A DNA stretch of 64,000 nt. Source: Actinomycetota bacterium (GTDB lineage: Bacteria > Actinomycetota > Actinomycetes > S36-B12 > UBA5976). Position 1 is the stretch's first letter, and each line of letters opens with the position of its first letter. Below, in pieces: positions 46,149 through 64,000 of the stretch. The translations under genes and the position numbers were made by a program. Below the pieces are notes generated by a model. The model was given only the letters and a program-made list of their open reading frames with translations. It did no database searches and had not been told where the DNA came from. The stretch is taken from the NCBI GenBank assembly GCA_009698575.1, contig WLPX01000003.1, positions 36,310 to 100,309 on the forward strand. The letters run 5' to 3'.

Positions 46149-46799
46149 CTATTCAGCCTTACTAATAACTTGGCTAACTACCGCCACCGAGTTTTCGCGA
46201 TGGGCAGCTTGTAGGGCGATTGACTCAGCAACATCCCGGTTACGTAAGGCAACGATCATGTTTCGGTGTTCAGCATTCATGGCCTTTAGATTTGCCGGGG
46301 CTGCGAAGTAGACCCCGCGATAGGCGTCAGTCGCATCCCATTGGTTTCGAATCATGCGCACAAGCCGTGGCATGTTACTCGCCTCAAAAAGTGCAAAGTG
46401 GAACCTGCGATTAGCAGCAGTAACTGCGCTGACGTCACCCGAAGTTGCGGCTGCTTCAACATCGCTCAAAATATCTTCTAGGTACTCAATATCTTCATCG
46501 GTAAGCAACGGAACCCCAACTCGAAGTGCTTCGTCTTCAAGAATTGATCGAATTCGATAAACCTCAACTAAGTCATCAACGCTTAAGTTGGCAACAAAGT
46601 AGCCACGATGCGGGTGATAAATTACCTGGCCTTCGCCTTCTAGTACCTTTAACGCTTCGCGAAGTGGTACTCGACTCACACCAAGGCTGGCAGCTAACGC
46701 ATCTTGCACCACTTGCTGACCTGGTTCAAGCTGACCCGAAGCGATCATGACACGAAGTTCGCGGAGAACTCCTTCTTGCGCGGTAACTGTTTCACTCAT
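46149..46799 (-). CDS. GntR-family regulator, FadR/FCD subfamily
   Basis: 216 aa. Winged HTH (LAASLGVSRVPLREALKVLEGEG) plus a helical FCD-like C-terminus. ATGA overlap with the upstream CoA-transferase. Confidence 0.8.
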   Translation of the reverse strand: MSETVTAQEGVLRELRVMIASGQLEPGQQVVQDALAASLGVSRVPLREALKVLEGEGQVIYHPHRGYFVANLSVDDLVEVYRIRSILEDEALRVGVPLLTDEDIEYLEDILSDVEAAATSGDVSAVTAANRRFHFALFEASNMPRLVRMIRNQWDATDAYRGVYFAAPANLKAMNAEHRNMIVALRNRDVAESIALQAAHRENSVAVVSQVISKAE

Positions 46800-47905
46800 G
46801 CTTCATCCAAACTTGGCGGTGCTACCGCATATCGAACTGGTGTTTTGGAAAAAGTTATTGGGTTTGCAACTTGTTTGCGCGCTTCGCCATCTTGATTCAT
46901 TGTGATGATCGGATTTAATCCAAGTGACTCTGCGAATTTAAACGCATCGTCTAAAGCATTGATTGGACCACATGGCACGCCCACTTCGGACAGGTTATGC
47001 CACCAGTGATCTGCGCCAAATTTGCGGAACTCGGAATTTAGTAAATCATTTAGCGCTACTCGATGTTCGACTCGATCTGGGTTAGTCAAGAATCTCGGAT
47101 CGCTGGCAACATCTGCGATCCCTAATGCGTCACATAGTTTTGCGAACTGTCCATCATTGCCGACTGCAATTACAACTGGTCGATCTGCAGTTTGGTAAAC
47201 CTCGTATGGCGTGATTGACGGATGCGCATTTCCTAAAATTCCTGGAACTACATCACCTGAGACATATGAACTTGCTTGGTTTACCATCGCAGACAGCAGC
47301 GACGAAAGTAAGTTAACTTCGATTTCCTGACCTTCGCCAGATAAGTTTCGATGATTAAGTGCTGCCAAAATTCCGATCGTGGCATGCATTCCAGTGATTA
47401 CATCAACAAGTGCGACGCCAACTTTAGTTGGCTGCCCAGGTCCTGGACCGGTAACACTCATCAAGCCACCCATGGCTTGGACGAGCAAGTCATAGCCAGG
47501 CATTTGTGCACCGGCGCCCGATCCAAAACCGGTAATGGAACAGTAGATAACTTCGGGCTTTAGTTCTTTAACGCTCGCGTAATCCAGACCGAATTTCACG
47601 CTATTGCTCGGTGGAAAATTATGGATGACTATGTCAGCACGTTTAACTAACTCGCGAGCTTCGGCAAGGCCCTCAGCGCTGGTCATATCGATGGCAACTG
47701 AAGTCTTGTTTCGATTTACGGATTCAAAGTAAGTAGCCCGACCAGCAGGATCGTATGGTGGTCCCCAGTGCCGAGTATCGTCGCCAACTTCGGGGCGCTC
47801 AATCTTTATAACCGTCGCGCCCATATCGCCGAGCAACATAGTTGCGTATGGGCCAGCCAAAACGCGTGTGAAATCTGCTACAACTAACCCGTCTAAAGCG
47901 CCCAC
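46796..47905 (-). CDS. Family III (CaiB/BaiF) CoA-transferase
   Basis: 369 aa with the N-terminal signature LDGLVVADFTRVLAGPYATMLLGDMGATVIKIE. Confidence 0.85.
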   Translation of the reverse strand: MGALDGLVVADFTRVLAGPYATMLLGDMGATVIKIERPEVGDDTRHWGPPYDPAGRATYFESVNRNKTSVAIDMTSAEGLAEARELVKRADIVIHNFPPSNSVKFGLDYASVKELKPEVIYCSITGFGSGAGAQMPGYDLLVQAMGGLMSVTGPGPGQPTKVGVALVDVITGMHATIGILAALNHRNLSGEGQEIEVNLLSSLLSAMVNQASSYVSGDVVPGILGNAHPSITPYEVYQTADRPVVIAVGNDGQFAKLCDALGIADVASDPRFLTNPDRVEHRVALNDLLNSEFRKFGADHWWHNLSEVGVPCGPINALDDAFKFAESLGLNPIITMNQDGEARKQVANPITFSKTPVRYAVAPPSLDEA

Positions 47906-47956
47906 ATACTGATTGTATCCAATCTCAAGGATTGAAATACTTCAGGAATAGTTGCC

Positions 47957-48742
47957 TTAAATGTCCTTTAACTCAACGATTCTGCCACGCTCGCCAGGCT
48001 GATCCGAGGTTGCTGGTCGGCCTTTAGTTCGCACCGTGATCCGGGTGCGATCCCCACGAAACAGGTCATGTGAGTACTCGATTTTGCGACCTTGGGTATC
48101 CATTGTGGTTCGGGTCACGGATAGTAAAGGAGATCCCAACGGGACTTCCAAGATTCGCGCTTCATCAGTTGTGGCATTTATTAAGTCAATTTGTTCAACA
48201 GCTTCATCAGGAACTGTTTCATAGTGTTTACCAAGTAATTCATAAATTGAATCACCTAGTGGCCTTTCTAATAGGCCCGGAAACATGTCCGCTGGAAATC
48301 TCGCGTGTTCTAGTGAAATTGGAATGCTATCTGCCAAACGAATTCGCACTACATCAAAAATATGTTCGCCCTCAGAAAGTCCCAAAGCCATTTGAGTCTT
48401 TAGATCCGCCGGCATAACCGAGGCGCTGATTAATTTCGTTCCTGCCGTAAAGCCTTGTCCCCGAAGTAATGATGGGACACCGACAATTTGCGATAAGTCT
48501 CGATCAAGTTTTTCGGAAGCAACAAATGTGCCACCGCCCCTACCTGGCAACCTTCGAACAATGCCTGTTTCTTCTAATGCAGAAAGTGCTAGTCGCAACG
48601 TGGATCGACTAACTTGATATTCAGCTGCGAGTTCGCGTTCAGCAATTAGTTTTTGACCTGGGCGAAGTTGACCAGTTGAAATCTGTCCCAAAATACGTTG
48701 GCGCACATCTTCGGCAGTGCGACCCAAATCGTTTTCGTTCAC
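47957..48742 (-). CDS. GntR-family regulator, HutC subfamily (UTRA effector domain)
   Basis: 261 aa. HTH region ERELAAEYQVSRSTLRLALSALEETG followed by a UTRA-like beta-rich C-terminal domain. GTG start. Confidence 0.8.
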   Translation of the reverse strand: MNENDLGRTAEDVRQRILGQISTGQLRPGQKLIAERELAAEYQVSRSTLRLALSALEETGIVRRLPGRGGGTFVASEKLDRDLSQIVGVPSLLRGQGFTAGTKLISASVMPADLKTQMALGLSEGEHIFDVVRIRLADSIPISLEHARFPADMFPGLLERPLGDSIYELLGKHYETVPDEAVEQIDLINATTDEARILEVPLGSPLLSVTRTTMDTQGRKIEYSHDLFRGDRTRITVRTKGRPATSDQPGERGRIVELKDI

Positions 48743-48766
48743 AGGACAACAGTAACTGCGTACTTG

Positions 48767-49549
48767 CTACATTGCTTCAAGCGCTGCAAGTGATTCGGGC
48801 AAAATTTGGCCGCCATCGATAACCAGAGCCTGCCCAGTTACATACGCCGCTTCTTTTGTTGCGAAAAAGAGTGCTGCGTTACCGATGTCATCAACTTCAC
48901 CAAGTCGACCTTGCGGAACTGATGCTTCCATTGCTTTTCGATACTCGGGACCCATGTCGGCTAAACCTTCAGTTGCAATGTTTCCTGGCAATACTGCGTT
49001 GACTGTTATCCCCTTCGGCGCGAGTTCAATCGCAGCGGTACGCATGAATCCAAGTTGCGCTGCTTTACTGGCTCCGTAATGTGACCAGCCTGGGAAGCCA
49101 GTAACTGGACCAGTGATTGATGACGTTAAAACGATTCGTCCGTGACCTGACTTTTCTAAAGCAGGCAAACAAGCCTGTACCGAAAGCATGGTGCCTTTTA
49201 CATTTGTGCCAAAGACTAAGTCCATATCAGCCTCTGACATCGTTGCCAATTTTGAATCTGGGAAAATTCCGGCATTAGCGCAAAGCACGTCAATGCCACC
49301 ATTGCGCTCGATGGCAGTTGCTGCAACGCGATCGCAATCTGCTTTACTGCTGACCTCGGCGATTAAGTAGGTAACAGTTCCGCCACCTAATCCAGTTAGT
49401 TCTGCGCAGGCAGACTTTGCACTCGCTTCATCACGGCCTGTTATTAGGACATTCGCTCCAGCTTTAGCAAAAACCCTGGCTATGCCTTTACCAATACCTT
49501 TAGTACCGCCAGTTACAACGACTGAGTATCCGGCTACTGATGTGAACAT
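48767..49549 (-). CDS. Short-chain dehydrogenase/reductase (candidate amino-alcohol dehydrogenase / aminoacetone reductase)
   Basis: [12 protein letters not shown] cofactor motif and catalytic YGASKAA. ATG at 49549, preceded by GGGAG, is preferred over the TTG at 49561 that begins the longest ORF. Confidence 0.85.
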
Positions 49550-49596
49550 TTGCACTCCCAATTTAGGTTTTTCAAGTTACGGAAAAGTATCTCTAA

Positions 49597-50586
49597 TTAT
49601 GCGAACTTAGACAGGTAGTTTTCGGCTAATTCACAACTTACTTTGGTGAAATTTGCGCCCATTTCTTTACCAGTGTCGGTATCTTGATGCGACCCAACCC
49701 AGGCAACCAGCAAGAGTCGGCGAAACAGTATGAAAGTTGGAAGTTCGACTTCCTCTTCTTTGCTGAGTGGAGAAACACTTCGGTAGCCATCTACCCATGA
49801 CGCAGTCATCTCGGGAACTAGTGGATGGTCTTCAATAAAGGAAACAGACGACCCAAGGTCGTACATAAACCAGCTAAGTCCGCAGTCATCAAAGTCAATT
49901 ACTGTTACGTCACTGCCTGCAACCAATAAATTAGCTAGCCGCATGTCTGCATGTACCAACCCAAATCGATCTTCACTTTTGCCGTAACGTTCCAGTCGCG
50001 ATTTGAGTGTGTCAGAAAGTCTGCCAAGGATTTCAAGTTCAGTTGGCCCCATAGCAAGTCCATCGCGCCAAGATCCCCAGTGACCATTTGGACCAAGCGC
50101 AGTTTCGTAGTCCCAAGTGAATCTAGAGAAGTTACTTGGACGGCTCCATTGCTTTGATTGATCATGCAGACGTGCAGTTATTGCGCCCAAAGTTTTGAAA
50201 TCATCAACCATGCGCTCTTCGGTAGGTTCAACACCCGGCATAAATTCAAACATCACCGCATGACGTTCTTCACCAGTTGAATCTTTCGCGAGAATGATTT
50301 GCTCACCTGAACCAGCAGGCAAAATTGCTGGGGTTCGAACCAATTGAATTTCGCGCAATGACTGCACCCAGTCAAGCTCACTTTGAATAGCTTGTTTCGA
50401 ATGGTAAAACGGTCGGTGGATTCGCAGAATCGTATCTAGACCAGTGGTGCTATCAGTGACCTTGAAGGTTGCATTCTCCGACAGGTTTAGTAGCGAAATC
50501 TTGGAATCCGCAGGATAGCCAAACTTCGCTACCGCATCTACGGCAAACTCTTGCAACTTTGTAGGTTCGTTCGAATACCCACTCAT
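49597..50586 (-). CDS. APH/choline-kinase-fold kinase (candidate amino-alcohol kinase)
   Basis: 329 aa. Brenner motif HADMRLANLLV and metal-binding IDFDD. Confidence 0.85.
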   Translation of the reverse strand: MSGYSNEPTKLQEFAVDAVAKFGYPADSKISLLNLSENATFKVTDSTTGLDTILRIHRPFYHSKQAIQSELDWVQSLREIQLVRTPAILPAGSGEQIILAKDSTGEERHAVMFEFMPGVEPTEERMVDDFKTLGAITARLHDQSKQWSRPSNFSRFTWDYETALGPNGHWGSWRDGLAMGPTELEILGRLSDTLKSRLERYGKSEDRFGLVHADMRLANLLVAGSDVTVIDFDDCGLSWFMYDLGSSVSFIEDHPLVPEMTASWVDGYRSVSPLSKEEEVELPTFILFRRLLLVAWVGSHQDTDTGKEMGANFTKVSCELAENYLSKFA

Positions 50587-50660
50587 TTAACTCTCCTACC
50601 AACACCTTTATTTTGGCTCACTTGCCAATTGGTTTTGTCACTTTTGGGGAAGAAAAATGT

Positions 50661-51317
50661 TTAACCTTGATCGCGTCCAACAACTGATTCGAGAGCTTTG
50701 GTAATTGCATCACGAGCCTTAGTTACACTTTCCGTTGAGCCACTCATGTAAACCCGTCCGGCTGCACCAATCATCTGTACATCAACCAAAGTCACATCTG
50801 GGGCAACTTTTTCGGCTTCATTAGCAGCCACAGTTGCAAACAACGCCGGTGTCATTTCATAAACCAACAGAGATTCACCTGGCATAACCATTGACGCTTG
50901 CCGATTGCGGTTGAGAATAATGGCATGTTGATCCGTGATGTTTTCAATAATGTCGCTGTAAAGAATCCGGGGACGTAATTGGTCAGCTGCTGAAGCGTTT
51001 ATGCCATCAAGGATCGCCTGACCAGCTCGCTTTACCAATTCAATGTCAGAAGCGTGAACTTCTAAAACACCAAACTGACGTTCCACGAACAAAATGCCAG
51101 GTTCAACTTCAGGTACCGACTTCAGCGCCAAGTCAATTACTCGCTCGATCGCAAGCCCGGGTGCTACCTCGATGATCAAAGAGTGCTGACCACCATATGG
51201 AGGGTAACCCCGAGCTCGCGTCGGCGTGCTCATATAAGCAGCAAATTGCTGCTGGAGCTCTTCAACAAGCAAGTAGACGCGTAGTTCGGGCCCTGCTACG
51301 AGCGGGCCCGCACTCAA
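50661..51317 (-). CDS. Tandem BMC-domain shell protein (BMC-T type), paralogue 1
   Basis: 218 aa with two internal BMC-like repeats ([20 protein letters not shown]...[15 protein letters not shown] and [20 protein letters not shown]...[16 protein letters not shown]). TTG start overlapping the BMC-H stop (TTGA). Confidence 0.8.
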
Positions 51318-51598
51318 GCGGACTCGCCTACTTTGAAGTACTTGCTTAGTTCTGCATGTGGACGTGGAATTACGTGCTGTGAAACTAGTTCGCCAACTTG
51401 GTTAACTGCTTCGGCACCTGCGTCAGTTGCAGCCTTAACTGCGCCGACATCACCCACGATGACAACAGTCACAAGACCGTCGCCAACTTCTTCACGCGCA
51501 ACAATAGTTACATTGGCTGCCTTAACCATGGCATCTGCAGCAGCAACTGCTGCAACATATCCCTTAGTCTCGATCAAGCCCAGTGCGTTGCTTGACAT
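51314..51598 (-). CDS. BMC-H hexameric shell protein (Pfam00936-type)
   Basis: 94 aa: [26 protein letters not shown]...[23 protein letters not shown], a canonical PduA/CcmK-like sequence. Strong SD AGGAGA upstream. Confidence 0.93.
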
Positions 51599-51680
51599 AT
51601 CTTTCTCCTATTTGTGATTGCAAACGGTTGTTTGCTTTCGGTTTATTCAGTCTTACTTGCCTGGTTTCCCAGGCGGTGTA

Positions 51681-51950
51681 CTAAGAAGCGCTGTGCTTCC
51701 CAGAACTCTTAGTGTCCTCATCAATCGAACCGATGATGAGAGCATCAATTGGCGGTGTTACGTCTGGGAACCAAGCTGCTGCTACTGAGCCAGTTGAAAC
51801 CAAAACGCTTTCCCCAATTCCGGAACCCAGAACGTCGAAAGCAACCAAGTGTGCGCCACCTTCAACTTCGACTTCGAGAAATGCCCCGTGGGGAATCTCA
51901 GTTAGACGACGGGTCGCCCATACATTGCCGATGACTCGAGCTTTTAACAT
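51681..51950 (-). CDS. BMC-P pentameric vertex protein (EutN/CcmL family)
   Basis: 89 aa: MLKARVIGNVWATRR...LVAFDVLGSGIGESVLVSTGS...IDALIIGSID, the typical EutN/CcmL pattern. Confidence 0.9.
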   Translation of the reverse strand: MLKARVIGNVWATRRLTEIPHGAFLEVEVEGGAHLVAFDVLGSGIGESVLVSTGSVAAAWFPDVTPPIDALIIGSIDEDTKSSGKHSAS

Positions 51951-52438
51951 CAGCGCATCACCGATCCCTTCTGATTATCTTGTTGACTTTCTTTTATGAT
52001 CGTCACACCTAAGTCGCGAGCTTTATCTCGCGCTAGTGATGTGACGACAACTTTGCGACCCACGATCAAAGTTGATCCGGATTCGGCAGCTTTTCTGATT
52101 GTTGACTCGGTAACAGCACCCTTTTCGATTCGGGTAGTCCCGCTATTATCTGCAACGTTAGCTTTCGCTTGGTCAGTTAACTGAAAAACGATTTCACCCT
52201 CGCGCAGCGCGCTCAGAGTTTTTGCATCTGCGGCCAAGTCAAGAATCCGATGCACAAAAGTTTGTACCTGAACGTCACTGGTCAAGGAAACCATTTCAAC
52301 AACTTGTGCTGGTTTTTGAGTAGGTGTCGCGTTGCCAGCTAAAGCTTTTGCAATGTCACTTGCCCCACTGGCGCCACCTAGCGCATCTCGCAGTGCTTCG
52401 CGGACGAGCGCCCGAAGCATTTCGTTATCTGTAGACAT
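51950..52438 (-). CDS. BMC-locus hypothetical protein with N-terminal encapsulation-peptide-like amphipathic helix
   Basis: 162 aa. EMLRALVREALRDAL (52379-52423), then a Gly/Ala/Pro/Gln linker, then a roughly 110-aa domain ending VVVTSLARDKARDLGVTI. Translationally coupled on both sides (TGATG). Confidence 0.6.
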   Translation of the reverse strand: MSTDNEMLRALVREALRDALGGASGASDIAKALAGNATPTQKPAQVVEMVSLTSDVQVQTFVHRILDLAADAKTLSALREGEIVFQLTDQAKANVADNSGTTRIEKGAVTESTIRKAAESGSTLIVGRKVVVTSLARDKARDLGVTIIKESQQDNQKGSVMR

Positions 52439-53037
52439 CAGCGCTCACTCAAAACTCGTTCAGCAACTTCAGCTGCCGCTCGAACATTTGCTTCTTTGCC
52501 AGATAAGTACACCCGACCAGTAGCGCCAATCATCCGGTAGTCAACAACTTTTATGTCAGTTGCCTTTTCCGCTTCATTAGTTGCCAAGATCGCATATGAC
52601 GCCGGTTGAACTTCCAATATGTACAAAGATTCACCCGGCAGAATCATCGAACCGACTTTGTTTCGATTGATAAGGAATGCATGCTGTTGATCCACGGATG
52701 GAACGACTCGGGAAGCCAAGATTTTAGGTTTTGTCGCTTCCGACTCAGATGTTCCAAGAGCTGCTAGTACTGCCTGACCGGCAGCGCGCACTTCTTCGGT
52801 TGGACCATGAATTTCTAGGTATCCGAAGGTTCGCTCTACGAACAAGATTCCAGCCTGAACATTTGCATGTTTTAGGGCAACGTCGGTCAACGCTTCAATG
52901 TCCAGACCAGGTGCAACTTCAATCACCTGGGCAGCCATGTTTGCGCGTGGCAAAGCTCCCTTAACCCATGAGCCCAAATAGCACATAGTTTGAGGTTGCA
53001 TCTGGTCGATATAGATGAACGACCGAAGCTCTGCCAT
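52438..53037 (-). CDS. Tandem BMC-domain shell protein (BMC-T type), paralogue 2
   Basis: 199 aa with two BMC-like repeats (VIEVAPGLDIEALTDVALKH...LEIHGPTEEVRAAG and ILEVQPASYAILATNEAEKA...VYLSGKEANVRAAAE). Collinear with the 218-aa paralogue. Confidence 0.8.
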   Translation of the reverse strand: MAELRSFIYIDQMQPQTMCYLGSWVKGALPRANMAAQVIEVAPGLDIEALTDVALKHANVQAGILFVERTFGYLEIHGPTEEVRAAGQAVLAALGTSESEATKPKILASRVVPSVDQQHAFLINRNKVGSMILPGESLYILEVQPASYAILATNEAEKATDIKVVDYRMIGATGRVYLSGKEANVRAAAEVAERVLSER

Positions 53038-53054
53038 GTATCTCTCTTCTCTAA

Positions 53055-54626
53055 TTAGTTCTTAATCAATGCGTGAAGTTCTTCGACAATCAGTTTCCGA
53101 ATTTCGTCGCGTAATTCTGCAACGTCTTGGGAAATTGGTTCACGATGAATCGGCGCAGGCACTTGGGCGTTGTTGCGATCATTTGAAGCCGTTGGGTAGG
53201 CCGGAACTGGTCCTGAAGGAGCTGTCCACGGATTCAAACCTGCAAACGTTGGCATTACTTCGCGCACGTCTGAGTTGTAAGCCAAGCGTGTGTAATTAAG
53301 TAAGTGTTTTGGTTGCAGGTTTTCGCCGACTGAAGATCGGCCGGCAAATCCAGTGCCAATTGTCATAGTTGGTGGCAAGTTTGTTTGGATTCCGGAGGCA
53401 CCAAGGCTGTTGCCCACATTCACCGAAACGCGTAGCACTGGAACCGCAGCGCTGAATTTCATAATTAGTTCTGGATTGGCGCTATGAATTGCGGCAGAGT
53501 GCCCTGCTCCGGTGATTCGTAAAATGGCGCGCGCAATATCAATGCCGCGCTCTGCAGTTGGAACTCGAACAAATCCCAAAACTGGACATAACTTTTCATG
53601 AGCAAAAGGTTCTTCAGGAACCACTAATTCAAACGGTGCGACCAAGGCTCTGGTTTTCGCCGGAACTTTTATGCCAGCTTGTTCTGCAATCCAAACGGCA
53701 TCTTTACCAACCATTTTTATGTTGAAGTGACCTTCTGGAAATACCGTGCTTCGAATTGCGTCGCGCTCTTCGTCTTTGAGAACATAGGCACCTTCACGGG
53801 CGAAAGCCAAAAGCAACTTATCTGCAATCGCTTCTTCTGCGATTACAACACTTTCGTTGGTGCACAAAATGGAGTTATCAAATGCCTTGCTCTCGATAAT
53901 TCGAGCTGCGGTTTTTTGGATGTCGGCTGTTGAATCAACTAAAACTGGAACATTTCCAGGACCCACGCCAATTGCTGGGTTTCCGCTGCGGTAAGCAGAT
54001 CGCACAACTGGGCTACCACCAGTAGCAACAATTACATCTGTGCGCTCATCGGTCATTAAGGCGTTAATTAATGGAATTGAAGGATCTTCCACAATTTGAA
54101 TGATTCCATCTGGGGCGCCCGCAGCAACTGCTGCTTCTGCCATTGCCTTGGCTGCTGCAACACAAACTTTCTTTGCCATTGGGTGCGGGCTAATGATGAT
54201 TGCGTTTCGAGTCATCAAAGCCAAAATGATTTTGAACGAAACTGTAGCAACCGGATTAGTGGAAGGCGTTAACGCCAGAACTACGCCAGCAGGCCTAGGA
54301 ATGGCAACAATTTTGTTAACTTCATCGATTTCTGGTGAAACAAAATCTTGACCTCGATAGGCATCAACAATTCCGGTAGAGCAAGCAACATTCTTTAGTA
54401 ACTTGTGTTCCGCTACACCAAAGCCAGTTTCCGCCACTGCATCACGTGCGAACTCTTGTGCCCGAGCGGCCAATGCCGAAGCTGCGGCATCAACAATTCG
54501 ATTAACTGTTGCTACGTCGTACTTTGCGTATGCTCGTGCAGCCCAATCAGCACGTTCGACCATGGCTCGCCCGCGAGGTACGCCGGCTGGTTCAACCATC
54601 AATGGTTCATAAGTCATTTCGCTCAT
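53055..54626 (-). CDS. CoA-acylating aldehyde dehydrogenase (PduP/EutE-like) with C-terminal encapsulation peptide
   Basis: 523 aa. Catalytic Cys in NSILCTNES. A Pro-rich linker is followed by the amphipathic helix DVAELRDEIRKLIVEELHALIKN (53058-53126). Confidence 0.88.
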   Translation of the reverse strand: MSEMTYEPLMVEPAGVPRGRAMVERADWAARAYAKYDVATVNRIVDAAASALAARAQEFARDAVAETGFGVAEHKLLKNVACSTGIVDAYRGQDFVSPEIDEVNKIVAIPRPAGVVLALTPSTNPVATVSFKIILALMTRNAIIISPHPMAKKVCVAAAKAMAEAAVAAGAPDGIIQIVEDPSIPLINALMTDERTDVIVATGGSPVVRSAYRSGNPAIGVGPGNVPVLVDSTADIQKTAARIIESKAFDNSILCTNESVVIAEEAIADKLLLAFAREGAYVLKDEERDAIRSTVFPEGHFNIKMVGKDAVWIAEQAGIKVPAKTRALVAPFELVVPEEPFAHEKLCPVLGFVRVPTAERGIDIARAILRITGAGHSAAIHSANPELIMKFSAAVPVLRVSVNVGNSLGASGIQTNLPPTMTIGTGFAGRSSVGENLQPKHLLNYTRLAYNSDVREVMPTFAGLNPWTAPSGPVPAYPTASNDRNNAQVPAPIHREPISQDVAELRDEIRKLIVEELHALIKN

Positions 54627-55978
54627 GCTGACCTGCGCTCATTACGGATTTCGGCATATGCTTTTCCAATTGCAAGCTCAGTGCGATCTAGCATTTCTTC
54701 GGCAACTTCTGGCTTTAACAAAATTCCTGGCTTGTATTGCAGCACTCGAGGATCAAGCGTGGAGAAGATTGCCCAAACGCCGTTTTCGTATAGATGGCGC
54801 ATTACGTACTTTGCGCCTTGTGGGTGTGCAAATTCCAAACCTAGAATCACGCCGTTTTGCCGGATGCCAATAAACCAATCTGGGTAAGTTGCCTGAACTT
54901 CTGCAAGCCGCATGCCAACGTAGTCGGCAATGTAATGAACCATTGATCGAGTTTCTTCGCGGGAACAAATTTCTAAAGTCTTGAGTGCTGCAATACATCC
55001 AAGTTCAGCGCCACCGAAAGTTGAAATGTGTCCGAAGCCATCTTCGTTCAACCAACCGGCTGCCTTTTCAGTTGCAAGAACAGCTGCGATTGGATACAGG
55101 CCACCCGAGATGCCCTTACCTGTGACAAGAATATCTGGAGTAATGCCGTGCTTAGTAATTCCCCAAAGTTCGCCAGTTCGCATCAAGCCGGTTTGAACTT
55201 CATCTGCGATGTATAGCGCGTCGTACTTTTCGCAAAGAAGTTTTACTGCTTCTAAGTAACCTGGGTTTGGCAGTGGGAAGCCATAAGTCGCTGGAATCGT
55301 TTCCATAATTACTGCAGCAACATCGCGACCCCGGAGCGCATCTTCCATAGCCTCTAAATCATTGAATGGCACATGCGGAAATTCTTCGGGACGATCTGAA
55401 AGAAATAGCTTGGAGAAGCGATCGTCGCCTGTACCTACGGCTAATCCAGTGTGGCCGTGATATGCCTTAATGATCGAAACAATTTTTCGTTTTTGCGTGG
55501 CATGACGTGCAGTCTTGAGTGCAATGTCAATGGCTTCACCTCCGCCGGATCCATAAATAACTTTGCTTAACCCAGCAGGGGCAGTTTTGATTAATGCCTC
55601 TGCTAACGCAGTTCTAGCAAGAGATGGGAAATGGTGGTTGCCAATATCAAAATGTTGCATTGCCATTGTTACGGCTTGCACAACTTCAGGATTACGGTGA
55701 CCTAAGTTATAAGTTCCACCGTTTAAGTGCGCATCAATCAGGCGCTTACCTGACATGTCATAAATGAAATATTCTTCGCGCCGATCAATTACCAGCGGCA
55801 CTCCAGAGTCAATCCAGAATTGAGTTTTACCCGGATTCCAAAATTCTTTGGACTTATCAAGCATCTGCTCTTTGGAGTCATATGAAAAAAGTCCGTAGTC
55901 GAATTCGGGGGCAGCAACTTGTTCTTGGGTCATCCCGAAACCTTTCGCTCTCTCCTGGAATCTGTATTTACAGATCAC
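54623..55978 (-). CDS. Class-III aminotransferase-fold PLP enzyme (candidate amino-alcohol O-phosphate phospho-lyase)
   Basis: PLP lysine in DILVTGKGISGG and DEVQTGLMRTG. The likely true start is ATG 55933 (MTQEQV, preceded by GAAAGG) rather than 55978. ATGA overlap with the AldDH. Confidence 0.85.
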   Translation of the reverse strand: MICKYRFQERAKGFGMTQEQVAAPEFDYGLFSYDSKEQMLDKSKEFWNPGKTQFWIDSGVPLVIDRREEYFIYDMSGKRLIDAHLNGGTYNLGHRNPEVVQAVTMAMQHFDIGNHHFPSLARTALAEALIKTAPAGLSKVIYGSGGGEAIDIALKTARHATQKRKIVSIIKAYHGHTGLAVGTGDDRFSKLFLSDRPEEFPHVPFNDLEAMEDALRGRDVAAVIMETIPATYGFPLPNPGYLEAVKLLCEKYDALYIADEVQTGLMRTGELWGITKHGITPDILVTGKGISGGLYPIAAVLATEKAAGWLNEDGFGHISTFGGAELGCIAALKTLEICSREETRSMVHYIADYVGMRLAEVQATYPDWFIGIRQNGVILGLEFAHPQGAKYVMRHLYENGVWAIFSTLDPRVLQYKPGILLKPEVAEEMLDRTELAIGKAYAEIRNERRSA

Positions 55979-56289
55979 CTGATCAAATGATTACACAGAA
56001 TTAGACCAAAAGACCATACCTTTTAGCAACTTTTGGTTGAATTTTGGTTTAACAACTAAAACCCTATAAATCCACAGTTTTACTGGCTAGTAAGTCCGAT
56101 TTGTCGCTTTCTGTGTTGATTTTTATACCAAATAGAATTTTCTGTTGACCAAAAAAATGGACAAAACTCATTCAATTTCATTGTTTTGGGGTTTGGTTTC
56201 TGGCAAAGTCGAACCAACCGTGTGACTGAGGTCACCGCAAGTGAGCAATGTCGGGAGTTCCTCGACGTTAAAACGAAAGGGTCGAATGC
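55979..56289. promoter_or_regulatory. Divergent control region between the BMC operon and the permease gene
   Basis: 311-bp AT-rich spacer. It holds the direct repeat AGACCAAAAGACCA (56003-56016), TTTTGGTTGAATTTTGGTTT (56031-56050), further ACCAAA copies, and the palindrome GTGAC-TGAG-GTCAC (56222-56235). Confidence 0.45.
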
Positions 56290-57870
56290 ATGTCGACAAA
56301 TAAAGATAGCCAACAAGGCCTTCGCAAAGGTGCCATTGGTTTGGTTGCGGTTCTATTTATGGCGGTAGCAAATGCTGCTCCGATCACTGCAATGAGCTTC
56401 AACATGCCTGTTGGTGTTGGTTGGGGTAACGGAATCGGTGCACCTGCCGGTTTCCTATTTGCAACGATCGTTTTATCGATTTTCTCAATCGGGTTCTCTG
56501 CCATGGCAAAGCGCGTTACAACTGCAGGCGCTTTTTACGGATTTATCTCTCATGGCCTAGGTCAAGTTTGGGGTATGGCGGCAGGTCTACTTGCTACCAT
56601 TTCGTACATTCTTTTCGAAGGTACCTTAATTGGTGGTTTTGCATTCTTCGCTTCAAACACCTTGAGTTCAATGGCTGGAATTGATGTCAACTGGTTGATA
56701 CTCGCAATCGGCGGCATGATCCTGATTTGGGTTTTGACTTATTTCGACATCACACTTGCTGCGGCAATTCTCAGCGTTACTTTGGTTGCTGAAGTGCTAT
56801 TACTTCTGGCTTTCGGCATCAGTGTTCTAGTTAAGGGTGGACCAGACGGATTCATGGTTTCTGAAACCATTTCCCCAATGGCTGCCTTTGGAAACCTTGA
56901 GGCTGGAGCATATGGATCGAGCGTTGCAGCTGGTACCGCAGCACTTGGTATCTTCTTTGCTTTCTGGTCATGGATTGGCTTTGAAACCACTGCTGCATAC
57001 GGTGAAGAGTCCAAGGATCCAAAGCACGTTGTCCCTCGCGCCACAATGATCGCCGTTATCGGACTTGGTGTGTTCTACACATTCGTTTCCTGGATGGCAG
57101 TTGTCGCAAACGGTGCAAAGACTTCTGTGGAAGTTGCTTCCGGATCCACTGGTAACCCAGTTGATCTTTGGTTAATCCCAGTTCAGGCAAATCTAGGTTC
57201 GCTTGCAGAAAGTACTTACCGAGTACTTTTGGTAATCGGTTCATTTGCTTGCGCCATGGCATTCCACAATGCTGCTTCACGCTACGTATTTGCACTTGGT
57301 CGCGAACTTCCATTTGCCGGAATCCGCACGCGTCTAGCAAGCACTCATCACAAGCATCAGTCACCAGCTGTGGCATCTACTGTGGTTACCGCAATCAACA
57401 TCGTTATGGTTCTCTTGTTTGCAACCTACTCAACTGCTTGGACTTCAGATCCAGCCGTTGCAGGCGCAACCTCAGACCCTAACTTGTTGCCATACGGAGT
57501 TATCTACACTGTTCCGTCACTTGTTGGAACTGCATTTATTCTGGTCGTTCAGGTAATCTGCTCATTTGCAGTTATCGGCTACTTCTGGGGTAAGAAGAAG
57601 CACAAAGGCAATGTTCTAACTACCTTGGTTGCTCCACTCGTTGGTGCAGCAGGCATGATCTACGCTTTAGTTCTGCTCTTCGCTGCAGTTGGTTCAGGCT
57701 TTGCCGCCGGTTACCAGTCAAACTCATTGATGGTTAAGTACCTGCCGCACGAAATTGCAGGAACTTTGATCTTCGGTTTGCTGTATGCCCTATGGGTCAA
57801 GTCCAAGCATCCAGAAATCTACGAAGAAATCGGTCGTACGACTATGGAAGAAGCTCACGAGCGCGTGTAA
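56290..57870 (+). CDS. APC-superfamily amino acid/amine permease
   Basis: 526 aa with about 12-13 TM helices. Typical APC N-terminal region GAIGLVAVLFMAVANAAPITAM. Confidence 0.85.
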   Translation: MSTNKDSQQGLRKGAIGLVAVLFMAVANAAPITAMSFNMPVGVGWGNGIGAPAGFLFATIVLSIFSIGFSAMAKRVTTAGAFYGFISHGLGQVWGMAAGLLATISYILFEGTLIGGFAFFASNTLSSMAGIDVNWLILAIGGMILIWVLTYFDITLAAAILSVTLVAEVLLLLAFGISVLVKGGPDGFMVSETISPMAAFGNLEAGAYGSSVAAGTAALGIFFAFWSWIGFETTAAYGEESKDPKHVVPRATMIAVIGLGVFYTFVSWMAVVANGAKTSVEVASGSTGNPVDLWLIPVQANLGSLAESTYRVLLVIGSFACAMAFHNAASRYVFALGRELPFAGIRTRLASTHHKHQSPAVASTVVTAINIVMVLLFATYSTAWTSDPAVAGATSDPNLLPYGVIYTVPSLVGTAFILVVQVICSFAVIGYFWGKKKHKGNVLTTLVAPLVGAAGMIYALVLLFAAVGSGFAAGYQSNSLMVKYLPHEIAGTLIFGLLYALWVKSKHPEIYEEIGRTTMEEAHERV

Positions 57871-57878
57871 CGTACAAA

Positions 57879-57925
57879 CAAATGAAATTGGGCATCAGCA
57901 TTGCTGGTGCCCAATTTCATTTTTA
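57879..57925 (+). terminator. Intrinsic terminator after the permease gene
   Basis: Long inverted repeat AAATGAAATTGGGCATCAGCA / TGCTGGTGCCCAATTTCATTT (one G-U pair) followed by a T-run. Confidence 0.8.
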
Positions 57926-57978
57926 AAGACTTCTTAAACCATAGGGAATTGCTCGACTAAATCGACAAGAATAAGGGC

Positions 57979-59016
57979 ATGACACTAGAGATTTGCAATT
58001 GGGCGCCGGATGAAGATGCTGATCCAGCCACACACACTTTCACATTTGGTGGACGTGAGGGTGTAGTTAGCGTAAAGCCAGGAACCATAATTGATTCTTG
58101 GTCCTTTGACTGCTTTGGTGGCCGGGTTAAATCTGCCAGTGACATGTCAACACAAGTTTGTGACCCTAGGTTTCTAAATCCGCAAACCGGACCGTTCTAT
58201 GTCGAAGGTGCCGAGCCAGGTGACACCTTGGCGGTTCACTTCATTTCTATTGAACCCCGTGAGGCTTGGGGCGTTAGTACGACTGTGCCATTCTTTGGCG
58301 CGCTTACTTCAACGCCGACAACTGCAACTTTGCAACCCGCACTTTTAGAACGAACTTGGATTTATGAATTGGACTTAACTGAGCGCTTAGTTAGATACGC
58401 AGCAGCTGACACTAAGTTCACAGCCGCACTGCCATTAGATCCGATGCACGGCACCGTCGGAGTCGCGCCCGCACTTGGCGAAGTTCGCTCATCTTTAACT
58501 CCAGGTGACTGGGGCGGAAATATGGATACTCCTGAAATGCGCGCTGGCGTTACTTGTTATCTAGGCGTAAATGTTGAAGGTGCATTGTTTTCATTTGGCG
58601 ATGGACATGCGCGCCAAGGTGAAGGTGAAACTTGTGGTGTCGCCGTTGAGACTGCCATGGATACCGTACTGATAATCGATTTGATCAAGGGAACTCCAAC
58701 GCCTTGGCCGCGTATTGAATCCGACGATTACATAATCACCACTGGCTCAACCAAGCCACTGGAAGATGCATTCCGAATCGCACATTCCCAGATGGTTCAT
58801 TGGGTTAGCGAACTAACCGGCCAATCAACTTTGGATAGTTATCAGTTCGTTTCGCAAACCGCTTTGACTCCAGTGGCAAATGTGGTTGATACCAACTACA
58901 CGATGGTTGCTAAAGTCGCCAAGGAATACTTAGGTAGTGTGAACGTAATGCAAGGAATGCATCACAAAATGCGAGCCAAAGCAGCGCAGTGGCAAACGTA
59001 TAAGAAAGGCAACTAA
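57979..59016 (+). CDS. Acetamidase/formamidase-family amidohydrolase
   Basis: 345 aa. FmdA/AmdA-like features: NPQTGPFYVEGAEPGDTLAVH and GNMDTPEM...GDGHARQGEGE. Confidence 0.75.
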   Translation: MTLEICNWAPDEDADPATHTFTFGGREGVVSVKPGTIIDSWSFDCFGGRVKSASDMSTQVCDPRFLNPQTGPFYVEGAEPGDTLAVHFISIEPREAWGVSTTVPFFGALTSTPTTATLQPALLERTWIYELDLTERLVRYAAADTKFTAALPLDPMHGTVGVAPALGEVRSSLTPGDWGGNMDTPEMRAGVTCYLGVNVEGALFSFGDGHARQGEGETCGVAVETAMDTVLIIDLIKGTPTPWPRIESDDYIITTGSTKPLEDAFRIAHSQMVHWVSELTGQSTLDSYQFVSQTALTPVANVVDTNYTMVAKVAKEYLGSVNVMQGMHHKMRAKAAQWQTYKKGN

Positions 59017-59450
59017 TGCCAAGGGTAGAACGCATGGAAATTGATTTAGCGCTCGCAATTGAAATGACCAATGCTGCTAAAGCTAAAGCAATTGAAATTA
59101 ATGCCCCCATGTCAATTGCCGTGCTTGACGCAGGTGCAAATCTGCTTAGCTTTCAGCGCATGGATGGCGCCGAACTTGCGGGGCCTAATTTGGCAGTTGA
59201 TAAGGCTTACACGTCAGTAACAAATCGAATTGAGACTGGCGACTTGCGAGCGCGAGTTGCACCTGATGGTGACCTGCCAGGCATGAACGCAAACGGTAAC
59301 GGTCGTTACATCGCATTCGCTGGCGGTATTCCGTGTTGGGATGGCGATCGCGTAATTGGAGCCATCGGAGTAAGTGGTGGCTCATGGGATGAAGATCAAA
59401 TATGTGCCCAGGCTGGAATTGAAGTATTTAAGCGAGCATGCCAGGCATGA
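59016..59450 (+). CDS. GlcG/DUF336 (PduO C-terminal-domain-like, putative haem-binding) protein
   Basis: 144 aa: ISIAVLDAGANLLSFQRMDGA...DKAYTS...GAIGVSGGSWDEDQ. TAATG junction with the amidase gene. Confidence 0.8.
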   Translation: MPRVERMEIDLALAIEMTNAAKAKAIEINAPMSIAVLDAGANLLSFQRMDGAELAGPNLAVDKAYTSVTNRIETGDLRARVAPDGDLPGMNANGNGRYIAFAGGIPCWDGDRVIGAIGVSGGSWDEDQICAQAGIEVFKRACQA

Positions 59451-61687: not shown

Positions 61688-62049
61688 ATTTACAAATTGG
61701 TTTTTCCGGAAAGAATGTCTCTGAAGTTACGGTTGAATCAATTCGTCGCGGAGACATAACTCTCGATGACGTACGAATTCATCCGAGTACTTTGTCGCAT
61801 CAAGCTGACGTTGCCCGCGAAAATGGCAATCCTCAACTCGCGGAGAATTTTCTGCGGGCCGCAGAATTGACTGGGCTGCCAGATGAAACGGTTTTGCGAT
61901 ACTACGACGCACTCCGTCCCGGCCGATCGACTGCACAAGATTTACTTCAAATTGCTGATGATTTGGCAGCCATTGGCGCAGTCAAAAACTCCGAATTGTT
62001 TCGCCAGGCTGCAGATGTCTATGCTCGCCGCGGGCTTACCGCAAAATAG
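61684..62049 (+). CDS. pduE: Diol/glycerol dehydratase small (gamma) subunit, short form
   Basis: 121 aa: DDVRIHPSTL..QADVARE...NFLRAAELTGLPDE..L.YYDALRPGRST, collinear with the PduE core. ATGA overlap with the fused alpha-beta gene. Confidence 0.88.
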   Translation: MNLQIGFSGKNVSEVTVESIRRGDITLDDVRIHPSTLSHQADVARENGNPQLAENFLRAAELTGLPDETVLRYYDALRPGRSTAQDLLQIADDLAAIGAVKNSELFRQAADVYARRGLTAK

Positions 62050-62054
62050 TCCTT

Positions 62055-63698: not shown

Positions 63699-63797
63699 TT
63701 CAAAATTTTCACACCAGAATTTGAAAAATCTGCAAAAGTATTTATAGCAAGTTTGGTATTCAGGTTTGAACCTAAATATAAATAAAGGGAGCGCGTA

Positions 63798-64000
63798 ATG
63801 GCTACTACCGTTTGGCATAACGGCAAAGTGTGGATTAATGAAAATGAATCATCAGATGCGATTGCAGCATCTGATGGTGTAATCGTTGCTCACGGTGCAG
63901 ATGCGCTTGCCTTGCAGGCCGATGAAAAAATTGACCTTAACGGCGCCACTTTGTTGCCAGGTTTTGGTGATGGTCATGCGCATCCAGTTTTTGGTGGTAC
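63798..64000 (+). CDS. Amidohydrolase-family (YtcJ-like metal hydrolase) protein, N-terminal fragment running off the window
   Basis: Not in the ORF track. ATG 63798, preceded by AAAGGGAG, translates to MATTVWHNGKVWINENESSDAIAASDGVIVAHG...IDLNGATLLPGFGDGHAHPVFGG (HxH metal motif). Confidence 0.65.
   Translation, partial: MATTVWHNGKVWINENESSDAIAASDGVIVAHGADALALQADEKIDLNGATLLPGFGDGHAHPVFGG

Follow-up and report, generated by a model that had tools for sequence, protein, structure and literature searches.

The window, the whole 64,000-nucleotide stretch of actinobacterial DNA that was analysed, carries a bacterial microcompartment (BMC) locus of ten minus-strand genes, a divergently transcribed permease gene, and a plus-strand diol dehydratase operon. 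The features of this region and of its argS side are as follows.

46149-46799: GntR-FCD regulator gene, between argS and the block
46796-47905: family-III CoA-transferase gene, between argS and the block
47926-63796: accessory block (15,871 bp, 16 genes) comprising the RMM/AAUM locus, the permease gene, and the diol dehydratase operon
47957-48742, minus: GntR/HutC-type regulator with GntR HTH and UTRA effector domain (Pfam UTRA 1.5e-36, GntR 4e-17)
48767-49561, minus: short-chain dehydrogenase (SDR), APDH ortholog (PDB 6CI8 and 6CI9, 1e-99, full length)
49597-50586, minus: APH-fold kinase, APK ortholog (PDB 6EF6 2.5e-89, residues 17-327; Pfam APH 2e-25)
50661-51317, minus: BMC-T, tandem-domain double-stacking (CcmP-like), MSM0271 ortholog (PDB 5SUH, MSM0271, 1.5e-95; NCBIfam CcmP 1.8e-59)
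51314-51598, minus: BMC-H hexamer protein, MSM0272 ortholog (Pfam BMC PF00936 8.8e-28; PDB 5L38, MSM0272, 1e-39)
51681-51950, minus: BMC-P pentamer vertex protein, MSM0273 ortholog (Pfam EutN_CcmL 1.3e-17; PDB 5L37, MSM0273, 7.5e-31)
51950-52438, minus: RMM-specific 162-aa protein
52438-53037, minus: BMC-T, tandem-domain double-stacking, MSM0275 ortholog (PDB 5L39, MSM0275, 2.2e-92; NCBIfam CcmP 1.3e-63)
53055-54626, minus: CoA-acylating aldehyde dehydrogenase (AldDH) with predicted C-terminal encapsulation peptide (NCBIfam AdhE N-terminal half 6.8e-131, EutH_ACDH 6.5e-117)
54623-55978, minus: class-III aminotransferase-fold PLP enzyme, proposed amino-alcohol O-phosphate phospho-lyase (Pfam Aminotran_3 1.1e-71)
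55934-56289: control region from which the aminotransferase and permease genes diverge
56290-57870, plus: APC-family permease, the first plus-strand gene (Pfam AA_permease 1.5e-14)
57979-59016, plus: acetamidase/formamidase-family (FmdA-like) protein (Pfam FmdA_AmdA 5.5e-24)
59016-59450, plus: HbpS/GlcG-like (DUF336) protein, gene overlapping its neighbours on both sides (Pfam HbpS-like 1.5e-33)
59438-61687, plus: B12-dependent diol/glycerol dehydratase, large and medium subunits fused (Pfam Dehydratase_LU 2.4e-231, Dehydratase_MU 9.5e-24)
61684-62049, plus: diol dehydratase small subunit, short form (Pfam Dehydratase_SU 1.2e-34)
62055-63698, plus: diol dehydratase reactivase large subunit (Pfam DDR 2.7e-37, DDR_swiveling 1.9e-15)

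By Pfam, NCBIfam, and PDB matches, the shell inventory consists of one BMC-H, one BMC-P, and two different BMC-T(dp) proteins, the combination that defines RMM1/AAUM1 shells (Sutter 2021, supplementary data). For BMC-H, 5L38 is the best natural protein in the PDB and second overall behind an engineered tandem BMC-H fusion. The BMC-H translation contains both the KAAN and the PRPH edge motif, the role of which has been described (Sutter 2021). The 218-aa CcmP-like tandem BMC protein gave no Pfam match at E≤0.01. The end of the BMC-H gene and the start of the MSM0271-type BMC-T gene share 4 nt. A full shell set (1 BMC-H, 2 BMC-T, 1 BMC-P) had been put forward in the original prediction, and the shell open reading frames do match BMC models as well as M. 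smegmatis structures.

Among the minus-strand enzymes, the SDR aligns over its full length with 6CI8 and 6CI9, which we take to be the M. smegmatis (S)-1-amino-2-propanol dehydrogenase (APDH), and it lacks a terminal extension. The kinase match, 6EF6, is presumably the M. smegmatis (S)-1-amino-2-propanol kinase (APK); the depositor names of all three entries are generic. The AldDH also matches Pfam Aldedh (1e-26), its best NCBIfam models are CoA-acylating, and Cys255 is invariant within ILCTNES (alignment A1). Immediately upstream, the aminotransferase gene overlaps the AldDH gene by 4 nt. For the aminotransferase, two starts are candidates: the longest open reading frame gives 451 aa from GTG 55978 and gene callers on identical contigs give 436 aa from ATG 55933, the latter being the likely start. 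Pfam and NCBIfam matches agree with the families originally assigned to the AldDH, aminotransferase-fold enzyme, APH kinase, SDR, HutC-type regulator, and APC permease. Profile searches detected neither a phosphotransacylase nor an alcohol dehydrogenase among the 16 genes of the block, and the absence of both is typical of RMM loci (Axen 2014; Sutter 2024).

The AldDH ends in an amphipathic tail, ELR(D/E)EIR(K/R)LIVEEL..LIK, conserved behind a variable linker of ~25 residues (alignment A1). This pattern identifies the tail (residues about 500-523, window 53058-53129) as a predicted encapsulation peptide, in line with the earlier description of an acylating AldDH carrying one. The RMM-specific 162-aa protein carries near its N-terminus a helix resembling an encapsulation peptide (residues about 4-20, window 52379-52429), followed by a variable linker and a pair of small conserved domains. 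Its alignment (A2) shows a conserved D.EMLRALVREALRDAL, an A/P/G-rich character of the variable linker, and the motif KGAVTE...T(P/S)LARDKAR, and its terminal hydrophobic moment was the highest of 20 proteins tested (99.8th percentile). A Pfam search and a PDB fold search of this protein found no match, TIGR02536 (NCBIfam) matched weakly at the C-terminus (1.6e-4), and the AlphaFold model has a pLDDT of 62.7. No conserved amphipathic terminus was seen in the plus-strand proteins.

The minus-strand genes run in the order aminotransferase, AldDH, BMC-T, 162-aa protein, BMC-P, BMC-H, BMC-T, kinase, SDR, and GntR regulator, which is the order in Mycolicibacterium and in most other Actinomycetota loci among the matches listed, as had been expected of a Mycobacterium-type RMM locus. 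Eleven co-directional, mostly translationally coupled genes had been predicted. All eleven are present where predicted, but only ten lie on the minus strand and the eleventh is the divergent permease; moreover, just four of the nine minus-strand junctions overlap (by 1 or 4 nt), the other gaps being 17-82 nt. The comparison set consisted of the best 80 matches listed to the window's AldDH. In the 37 full-flank actinobacterial RMM loci among these matches, the kinase is present in all 37, the GntR/UTRA regulator in 36, the 162-aa protein in 31, and the permease in 29. The control region between the divergent genes contains inverted repeats TTAGACCAAAA / TTTTGGTTTAA (repeat-search pairs I1 and I4) as candidate operators, an assignment that is a lead only because no exact palindrome was common to different taxa.

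RMM1/AAUM1 of M. smegmatis mc2 155 (Axen 2014; Sutter 2021; Mallette and Kimber 2017, 2018) has the same shell set as that predicted for the window (one BMC-H, one BMC-P, two distinct BMC-T(dp)). It also has the same class-III aminotransferase-fold enzyme, acylating AldDH, APH-fold kinase, and SDR, together with the same GntR/UTRA regulator, divergent permease, and gene order, and it too is without a phosphotransacylase (PTAC) and an alcohol dehydrogenase (AlcDH). Every solved component of that system is the top natural PDB match of the window protein (E 1e-31 to 1e-100), and with shell proteins, kinase, and SDR best matched by the corresponding M. smegmatis RMM structures, the original assignment to the RMM type holds. 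A GntR-family regulator and an amino-acid permease have been reported at the ends of RMM loci (Axen 2014), and the window locus has one at each end, as in RMM1. In tblastn comparisons with Mycolicibacterium loci, the 162-aa protein is 32-43% identical, whereas the other RMM proteins reach 45-77%. The hydrolase genes listed for RMM1 (Axen 2014) are not among the 16 genes of the block, which instead include the FmdA-like amidase, the HbpS-like protein, and the dehydratase/reactivase operon. The hosts also differ, M. smegmatis being a high-GC soil mycobacterium and the window's host a 48% GC, gene-dense, freshwater Nanopelagicales-like lineage.

The locus had been taken to end at 57870. However, a tightly coupled plus-strand operon (57979-63698) continues the unit 108 bp after the permease gene and encodes the FmdA-like and HbpS-like proteins, the fused diol dehydratase, its small subunit, and the reactivase. 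The FmdA-like gene still adjoins the permease gene in loci where the dehydratase sits elsewhere (L016, L017, L053). In the fused dehydratase, residues 12-551 form the alpha part and residues 574-741 the beta part, equivalent to residues 50-217 of 1DIO_B, with a linker between them that is not conserved. The match to the medium-subunit profile begins only at position 38 of 219, and by both this match and that to 1DIO_B the PduD-type N-terminal targeting segment is absent. The small subunit likewise lacks the PduE N-terminal extension, the PduE profile being matched only from position 59 of 173. No separate reactivase small-subunit gene follows the reactivase gene; on identical contigs the next gene, ~100 bp on, encodes Amidohydro_3.

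Common to the window and the Salmonella-type PDU system are a B12 diol dehydratase with reactivase, a propionaldehyde intermediate, and a tagged acylating AldDH. The targeting tag of PduP is N-terminal, whereas that of the window's AldDH is C-terminal. The window further departs from PDU in its fused large and medium subunits, the missing PduD and PduE extensions, and the lack of a reactivase small-subunit gene. Its shell contains CcmP-like BMC-T(dp) proteins and no homologs of other PDU shell proteins, and PduL, PduQ, PduS, and PduO are absent from the block, in which only the HbpS/DUF336-like protein is present.

The extent of the block is given by related genomes. Homology with the empty site L094 ends at 47925 and restarts at 63797 (blastn against the window), and in this sister lineage an intergenic stretch of 170 bp occupies the place of the window's 15.9-kb block. 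The empty site thus defines the unit as 47926-63796, RMM locus and dehydratase operon together. Sites L088, L089, and L093-95 are empty, and L087, L090-92, and L096-97 carry the block, which lies between a CoA-transferase gene and an amidohydrolase gene. Jointly missing with clean borders in the sister lineage, the RMM locus and the dehydratase operon are the same insertion/deletion unit. The entire block is missing from a close sister lineage and so counts as an accessory trait that is not fixed in the clade. The locus does not directly follow argS, as had been stated, since the GntR-FCD and CoA-transferase genes intervene.

Taken together, the evidence makes it likely that the window holds a functional RMM1/AAUM-type BMC locus of a freshwater Nanopelagicales-like actinobacterium, joined to a B12 diol dehydratase operon in a vertically inherited 15.9-kb accessory block. 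The APC permease would import an amino alcohol or aminoacetone. The SDR would interconvert aminoacetone and (S)-1-amino-2-propanol, an activity demonstrated with the orthologs from M. smegmatis and Rhodococcus, and the APH-fold kinase would phosphorylate the amino alcohol, as shown for the M. smegmatis ortholog. Within the shell of one BMC-H, one BMC-P, and two BMC-T(dp) proteins, the aminotransferase-fold enzyme is proposed, by pathway logic, to act as an O-phospho-amino-alcohol phospho-lyase releasing propionaldehyde, ammonia, and phosphate; the literature searched contained no published assay of this activity for an RMM ortholog. The AAUM pathway model of Mallette and Kimber, which is cited by reviews, reportedly also yields propionaldehyde. 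The tagged AldDH, whose family and tag are read from its sequence, would turn this aldehyde into propionyl-CoA. The 162-aa protein with its targeting-like helix may be a core or adaptor protein, and the GntR/UTRA protein would control the divergent promoters. Diol dehydratase yields propionaldehyde from 1,2-propanediol, and the dehydratase with its reactivase would therefore supply the same aldehyde, so that the block is best read as a two-entry propionaldehyde-to-propionyl-CoA module. Amino alcohols, by which the original prediction justified the cost of the organelle, are retained here as one entry, but this justification was incomplete because the B12 dehydratase/reactivase operon that it overlooked belongs to the same insertion/deletion unit. 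The recycling of NAD+ and CoA in RMM is a recognized gap in current understanding (Sutter 2024).

A tentative but tenable alternative is that the BMC serves amino alcohols only and that the dehydratase operon is a cytosolic, independent neighbour, linked through ancestry or shared regulation. This is the view of Sutter 2021, which judged PDU enzymes to be probably of minor importance in RMM loci and found them near only 4 of the 32 loci that it terms RMM2. The lack of PDU-type targeting extensions on the dehydratase subunits is consistent with it, as is the position of the operon on the opposite strand, also described for the Mycobacterium loci named RMM2/PDU2, which pair the RMM gene set with oppositely oriented diol dehydratase genes (Axen 2014). 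Among the matches listed, a fused dehydratase lies ≤10 kb away in 27 of 66 related RMM loci. For the full-flank actinobacterial loci the figure is 21 of 37, which is biased toward relatives of the window locus because the loci are the best AldDH matches listed; the other 16 have no dehydratase nearby. However, the linkage recurs in at least four positions or orientations, which is hard to obtain from ancestry alone, and in the window's clade the RMM locus and dehydratase are missing as one clean block. Releasing propionaldehyde into the cytosol beside an organelle made to confine it would also be an odd design. For RMM2/PDU2, whose diol dehydratase genes lie beyond the RMM core and permease on the other strand, as in the window, a possible bifunctional organelle was suggested (Axen 2014), and the linkage in the window has added support from the presence/absence polymorphism of the whole block. 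The class name RMM2 was later redefined as RMM2/AAUM2, with Proteobacteria/Marinimicrobia hosts and a different gene order (Sutter 2021). This class was rejected for the window because its gene order is that of RMM1 and its host an actinobacterium; the proteobacterial loci (L048-L066) are ordered otherwise.

It is unlikely that ethanolamine from phospholipid turnover is the main substrate, with the kinase and phospho-lyase leading through acetaldehyde to acetyl-CoA. Amino-alcohol breakdown by kinase and phospho-lyase, as classically described in bacteria, accepts both ethanolamine and 1-aminopropan-2-ol, and a greater supply of ethanolamine in lake water is plausible. The permease matches amino-acid and ethanolamine permease models weakly, the latter at 4e-8. 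Yet the enzymes to which the kinase and SDR are closely orthologous were characterised with (S)-1-amino-2-propanol and aminoacetone as substrates, ethanolamine would leave the SDR without a role, and the linked diol dehydratase suits a C3 aldehyde pool.

A different model was stated by Axen 2014, in which the PLP enzyme is a true aminotransferase converting aminoacetone to methylglyoxal, which the AldDH detoxifies. The closest solved or curated relatives of the enzyme are indeed transaminases (putrescine aminotransferase, ArgD, and PigE), putrescine aminotransferase being the nearest solved one (4.5e-52). We nevertheless regard this model as very improbable, as it leaves the kinase without a role despite its presence in every full-flank actinobacterial locus among the matches listed, the kinase ortholog (6EF6) phosphorylates 1-amino-2-propanol, and a supply of amino acceptor is not encoded.

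A decaying or recently acquired island without present function is a barely credible reading of the block, although a sister lineage lacks it: all 16 open reading frames are intact in two carrier lineages whose DNA differs by 21-24%, block proteins are 72-98% conserved between them, mostly ≥86%, at ~79% DNA identity, and searches gave no integrase, tRNA, or border repeats. Identity between these lineages is 95-98% for the shell proteins, 95% for the SDR, and 93% for the dehydratase, and the aminotransferase-fold enzyme is 96% identical to its L096 ortholog; ArgS and LysA are 92% and 86% identical. GC (0.478 vs 0.484) and GC3 (0.401 vs 0.403) of the block match those of the rest of the window, and its DNA identity between carriers (78.8%) is about that of the flanks (76.4%), which indicates from composition and divergence that the block is old in the clade.

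Across the window, GC is 0.45-0.51, the coding fraction is ~94%, and the median intergenic gap is 17 bp. Exact proteins of the window were found in many freshwater metagenome assemblies, with contigs of up to 230-268 kb, and its AtpD is 99% identical to a protein from a MAG labelled Candidatus Nanopelagicales by NCBI. A mid-GC, gene-dense actinobacterial host is thus supported, the term compact resting on coding density and order-level placement. The host is a very abundant, gene-dense freshwater lineage, probably belonging to Candidatus Nanopelagicales by one marker and the NCBI label of one MAG. A known organelle type, RMM1/AAUM, is thereby found in a new host lineage.

Ten consecutive open reading frames (ORFs) on the minus strand span 47957-55978, with a permease gene transcribed divergently from them. 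A complete RMM-type microcompartment locus had been predicted here, and the gene set, shell ORFs included, is real, being matched by Pfam and NCBIfam profiles apart from the 162-aa protein. The genes are listed in transcription order, with profile E-values in brackets.

First, minus strand: class-III aminotransferase-fold protein (Pfam, 1e-71)
Second, minus strand: aldehyde dehydrogenase (AldDH), whose best curated models (NCBIfam) are CoA-acylating (AdhE N-terminal half, 7e-131; EutH_ACDH, 7e-117)
Third, minus strand: CcmP-like tandem BMC protein, 199-aa BMC-T (1e-63)
Fourth, minus strand (51950-52438): 162-aa protein (no Pfam match)
Fifth, minus strand: EutN/CcmL pentamer protein, BMC-P (1e-17)
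Sixth, minus strand: BMC-H protein (9e-28)
Seventh, minus strand: second CcmP-like tandem BMC protein, 218-aa BMC-T (2e-59; no Pfam match at E<=0.01)
Eighth, minus strand: APH-fold kinase (2e-25)
Ninth, minus strand: SDR (Pfam/NCBIfam)
Tenth, minus strand: GntR+UTRA regulator (Pfam/NCBIfam)
56290-57870, plus strand: permease, 526 aa, divergent

The original prediction counted eleven co-directional genes, mostly translationally coupled; there are ten, the permease being divergent, and overlaps occur at only four of the nine junctions, the others being gaps of 17-82 nt. The aminotransferase gene probably starts at the ATG at 55933, as called on identical contigs, rather than at the GTG at 55978.

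Each product was compared with the full set of solved structures. For the six products tabulated below, the match is the Mycobacterium smegmatis RMM protein from the equivalent position in its locus.

Table. Solved structures matching products of the locus (product; structure; E-value).
199-aa BMC-T; best structure MSM0275 (5L39); 2e-92
218-aa BMC-T; best structure MSM0271 (5SUH); 1.5e-95
BMC-H; MSM0272 (5L38), the top natural match, ranked below an engineered tandem BMC-H fusion; 1e-39
BMC-P; best structure MSM0273 (5L37); 7.5e-31
Kinase; best structure 6EF6, presumably the M. smegmatis amino-propanol kinase (depositor name generic); 2.5e-89
SDR; best structure 6CI8/6CI9, 6CI8 being taken as the M. 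smegmatis amino-propanol dehydrogenase (depositor name generic); 1e-99

Among solved structures the aminotransferase-fold enzyme finds no close relative, the best match being putrescine aminotransferase (4.5e-52). The BMC-H protein retains the KAAN and PRPH edge motifs, which have been linked to facet-forming hexamers (Sutter, 2021).

With an alignment of AldDH homologs (A1) as the query, a single genome of each GTDB species was scanned, and 20 window proteins were compared by tblastn with the 80 best-matching loci, 66 of which are RMM-type. The order AT-AldDH-T-hyp-P-H-T-kinase-SDR-GntR is common to nearly all Actinomycetota among the 66, including Mycolicibacterium, Nocardioides, Streptosporangiaceae, Kineosporia, and Solirubrobacterales, whereas gene orders in proteobacterial RMM loci differ from that of the window. 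Firmicutes matches below approximately 45% identity represent other microcompartment types. RMM1/AAUM1 has been defined from 140 loci in Actinobacteria and Proteobacteria as having one H, one P, and two different T(dp) proteins (Sutter, 2021). The window locus fits this type and not the RMM2/AAUM2 of the same catalog; it is a bona fide RMM1/AAUM1 locus, hence of a known kind. A complete RMM-type locus, with an AldDH 65% identical, also occurs on a contig binned as Bifidobacterium breve (L073; CALQEM020000037.1), which is most likely mis-binned.

The unit does not end with the permease at 57870, as originally proposed. A tightly coupled plus-strand operon, overlooked in that reading, begins 108 bp beyond it.

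57979-59016, plus strand: FmdA/AmdA-family protein
59016-59450, plus strand: HbpS/DUF336-like protein
59438-61687, plus strand: diol/glycerol dehydratase, fused large and medium subunits, 749 aa (large-subunit model, 3e-249)
61684-62049, plus strand: dehydratase small subunit
62055-63698, plus strand: reactivase large subunit, 547 aa

No gene for the reactivase small subunit is found in the block that these genes form with the RMM locus; either the reactivase acts without it or its gene lies elsewhere. An Amidohydro_3 gene follows the reactivase large-subunit gene by approximately 100 bp (window 62055-64000; 1-2572 of comparison locus L001).

The boundaries and history of the block were examined in relatives located through ArgS homologs. 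A complete block occupies the same site in a lineage with 92% ArgS identity (loci L087, L090-92, and L096), and the site is empty in a lineage with 91% ArgS identity (L088, L089, and L093-95, including NCBI assembly GCA_052739875.1), where the amidohydrolase gene directly adjoins the CoA-transferase gene. When the window is aligned with the empty site, homology stops at 47925 and restarts at 63797, which defines a unit of 15,871 bp and 16 genes (47926-63796), in place of which the empty site has 170 bp. At least 23 metagenome contigs encode an identical AldDH, and the 16-gene arrangement is the same on all those listed. Neither an integrase nor a tRNA nor a border repeat was found at the block, and since a tRNA scan returned no tRNA, it does not lie at a tRNA site. 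The block is indistinguishable from its flanks in GC content (0.478, compared with 0.484 in the remaining window sequence) and in GC3 (0.401 against 0.403).

Flanking DNA of the window is 76.4% identical to that of either relative, the second carrier or the block-less lineage, and these two are 82% identical to each other; for the block, identity between the two carriers is 78.8%. The simplest history is that the block was present in the common ancestor and underwent one clean loss. Between carriers, protein identity is 95-98% for the shell, 96% for the aminotransferase, 95% for the SDR, 93% for the dehydratase, and 94% for the FmdA and HbpS proteins, compared with 92% and 86% for the flanking ArgS and LysA. 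By these identities, the block is under purifying selection, and there is evidence that it is ancient and selected in the clade, yet dispensable.

Contrary to the original claim, the locus does not directly follow argS; two genes intervene.

46149-47905, between argS and the block: genes for a GntR-FCD regulator and a family-III CoA-transferase, overlapping by 4 nt

The best model for the transferase is succinate--glutarate CoA-transferase (4e-109). These genes were considered as locus members that might recycle CoA and were rejected, as they are unchanged in lineages without the block and thus form a separate unit. In the block-less lineage, urease subunit genes lie beside the amidohydrolase gene (L093-L095 and L088).

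Coding sequence makes up 94% of the window, the median gap being 17 bp and GC content approximately 48% throughout, and outside the block the window has core actinobacterial synteny (lysA-argS, hom-thrC-thrB, rho, prfA, prmC, glyA, and the atp operon). This synteny at 19137-44407, where sua5 is also found, means that the block borders a highly conserved stretch and is not in a variable island of the typical kind. The stretch also has a kynureninase-like gene (32288-33571). A 580-aa protein (34187-35929, minus strand) is matched in Pfam solely by a B12-binding domain, weakly and under the gathering score (1.3e-6); it may represent a second cobalamin-dependent function, and the lineage is presumably B12-scavenging. 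Convergent with lysA is a 347-aa ORF without a Pfam match (42027-43070, plus strand), whose position is kept in sister lineages, where it is called at 336-348 aa and likewise has no family. Exact copies of window proteins are deposited as "freshwater metagenome," and freshwater metagenome variants at >=90% identity fill the list of ArgS homologs. AtpD is 99% identical to a protein that NCBI assigns to a Candidatus Nanopelagicales MAG, a single marker that suggests placement of the host at the level of the order. A literature search returned no report tying microcompartments, propanediol, or aminopropanol to Nanopelagicales, Planktophila, or acI, and these names do not occur in the accessible part of the supplementary data of Sutter (2021).

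The term RMM2/PDU2 was coined for an RMM locus with a dehydratase on the opposite strand, and the idea of a bifunctional organelle was raised with it (Axen, 2014). The window has this arrangement. The dehydratase was later set aside as probably unimportant for RMM loci (Sutter, 2021). Among the loci from the best 80 AldDH matches, a sample biased toward relatives of the window AldDH, a fused dehydratase lies within 10 kb in 27 of 66 RMM loci and near 21 of the 37 actinobacterial loci with full 10-kb flanks, a quantitative hint that the linkage is common. The dehydratase is found past the permease and divergent, as in the window; co-directional, immediately after the GntR gene; convergent, after the GntR gene; or, in two Alphaproteobacteria, upstream of the RMM core. 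Despite the sample bias, these varied arrangements, together with the fact that the sister lineage lacks both parts at once, speak for selection on the linkage. In L016, L017, L025, L049, L053, and L067, an FmdA-like gene accompanies the permease or RMM core, even when the dehydratase is at another position or missing. Since it stays with these genes, the protein may have a role in the amino-alcohol branch, such as freeing the amine from an N-acyl precursor.

The AldDH had been said to carry an encapsulation peptide, and the alignment agrees. Its C-terminus bears a conserved amphipathic segment, ELR(D/E)EIR(K/R)LIVEEL..LIK, behind a linker of approximately 25 residues with little conservation, and by sequence this appears to be the usual anatomy of such a peptide. 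A strongly conserved helix (D.EMLRALVREALRDAL) lies at the N-terminus of the 162-aa protein and is followed by a linker, whose length varies greatly, and by two small conserved domains; the terminal hydrophobic moment of this helix is the highest among 20 proteins tested. The AlphaFold model of the protein is of modest confidence (pLDDT 62.7, pTM 0.27), and Foldseek found no fold relative in the PDB at E<=0.001. Comparison of termini, profiles, and linker found no targeting signal of either type on the dehydratase. Its alpha part begins a few residues ahead of the conserved core, as judged from loci with unambiguous starts, longest-ORF extension being spurious in high-GC loci. The beta part starts at the equivalent of Klebsiella beta-chain residue 50 (medium-subunit profile position 38), the inter-subunit linker is not conserved, and the small subunit is a short form missing approximately 55 N-terminal residues of PduE.

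Candidate operators, which serve as a lead, lie at 55996-56052, 60-120 bp upstream of the aminotransferase gene: nested inverted repeats (TTAGACCAAAA / TTTTGGTTTAA) and a tandem TTTTGGTT(G/T)AA repeat. No exact palindrome is conserved across 60 upstream regions as a common GntR operator. An Rfam scan of the whole window found no RNA family or riboswitch, including the cobalamin riboswitch, and promoter and terminator consensus scans of 47800-64000 gave sites no more numerous than in shuffled sequence.

Orthologs of the SDR interconvert aminoacetone and 1-amino-2-propanol, orthologs of the kinase phosphorylate 1-amino-2-propanol, and reviews describe the RMM organelle as metabolizing aminoacetone to propionyl-CoA. 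In the proposed pathway, the permease would import the substrate, the PLP enzyme would act as a phospho-lyase releasing propionaldehyde within the shell, and the tagged AldDH would convert propionaldehyde to propionyl-CoA, with the GntR/UTRA protein governing the divergent promoters. The dehydratase would yield the same aldehyde from 1,2-propanediol. It is conceivable, but rather unlikely, that in this clade the RMM shell forms a two-entry organelle fed propionaldehyde by two unrelated signature enzymes, the PLP phospho-lyase and the B12 diol dehydratase, the latter recruited without a canonical targeting peptide, perhaps via the 162-aa protein, which would itself carry one, and that this pairing is widespread and selected in Actinomycetota. 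If so, the pairing would be the very combination that the 2021 catalog dismissed, and a bacterioplankton lineage among the most abundant in fresh water would gain a dedicated route to propionyl-CoA, both from amino alcohols and from 1,2-propanediol of algal origin.

The host lineage and the defined 16-gene accessory block with a B12 dehydratase are new here, as are the evidence for its age, selection, and dispensability and the hint, in counts, of a common RMM-dehydratase linkage. The frequency of this linkage, in several arrangements, reopens the question of a bifunctional RMM organelle. It is also relevant to the workings of organelles that have no known enzymes for cofactor recycling, NAD+ and CoA recycling in RMM being a recognized gap. 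Most discussion of microcompartments concerns gut anaerobes, pathogens, soil actinobacteria, and autotrophs. Here the bearer is a gene-dense actinobacterial lineage of fresh water, very abundant in lake metagenomes, in which the organelle is conserved yet dispensable. Sister lineages with occupied and with empty sites offer a natural contrast for ecology and metatranscriptomics, and the presence of the block suggests that the genuine carbon and nitrogen sources in lakes include amino alcohols and probably also 1,2-propanediol.
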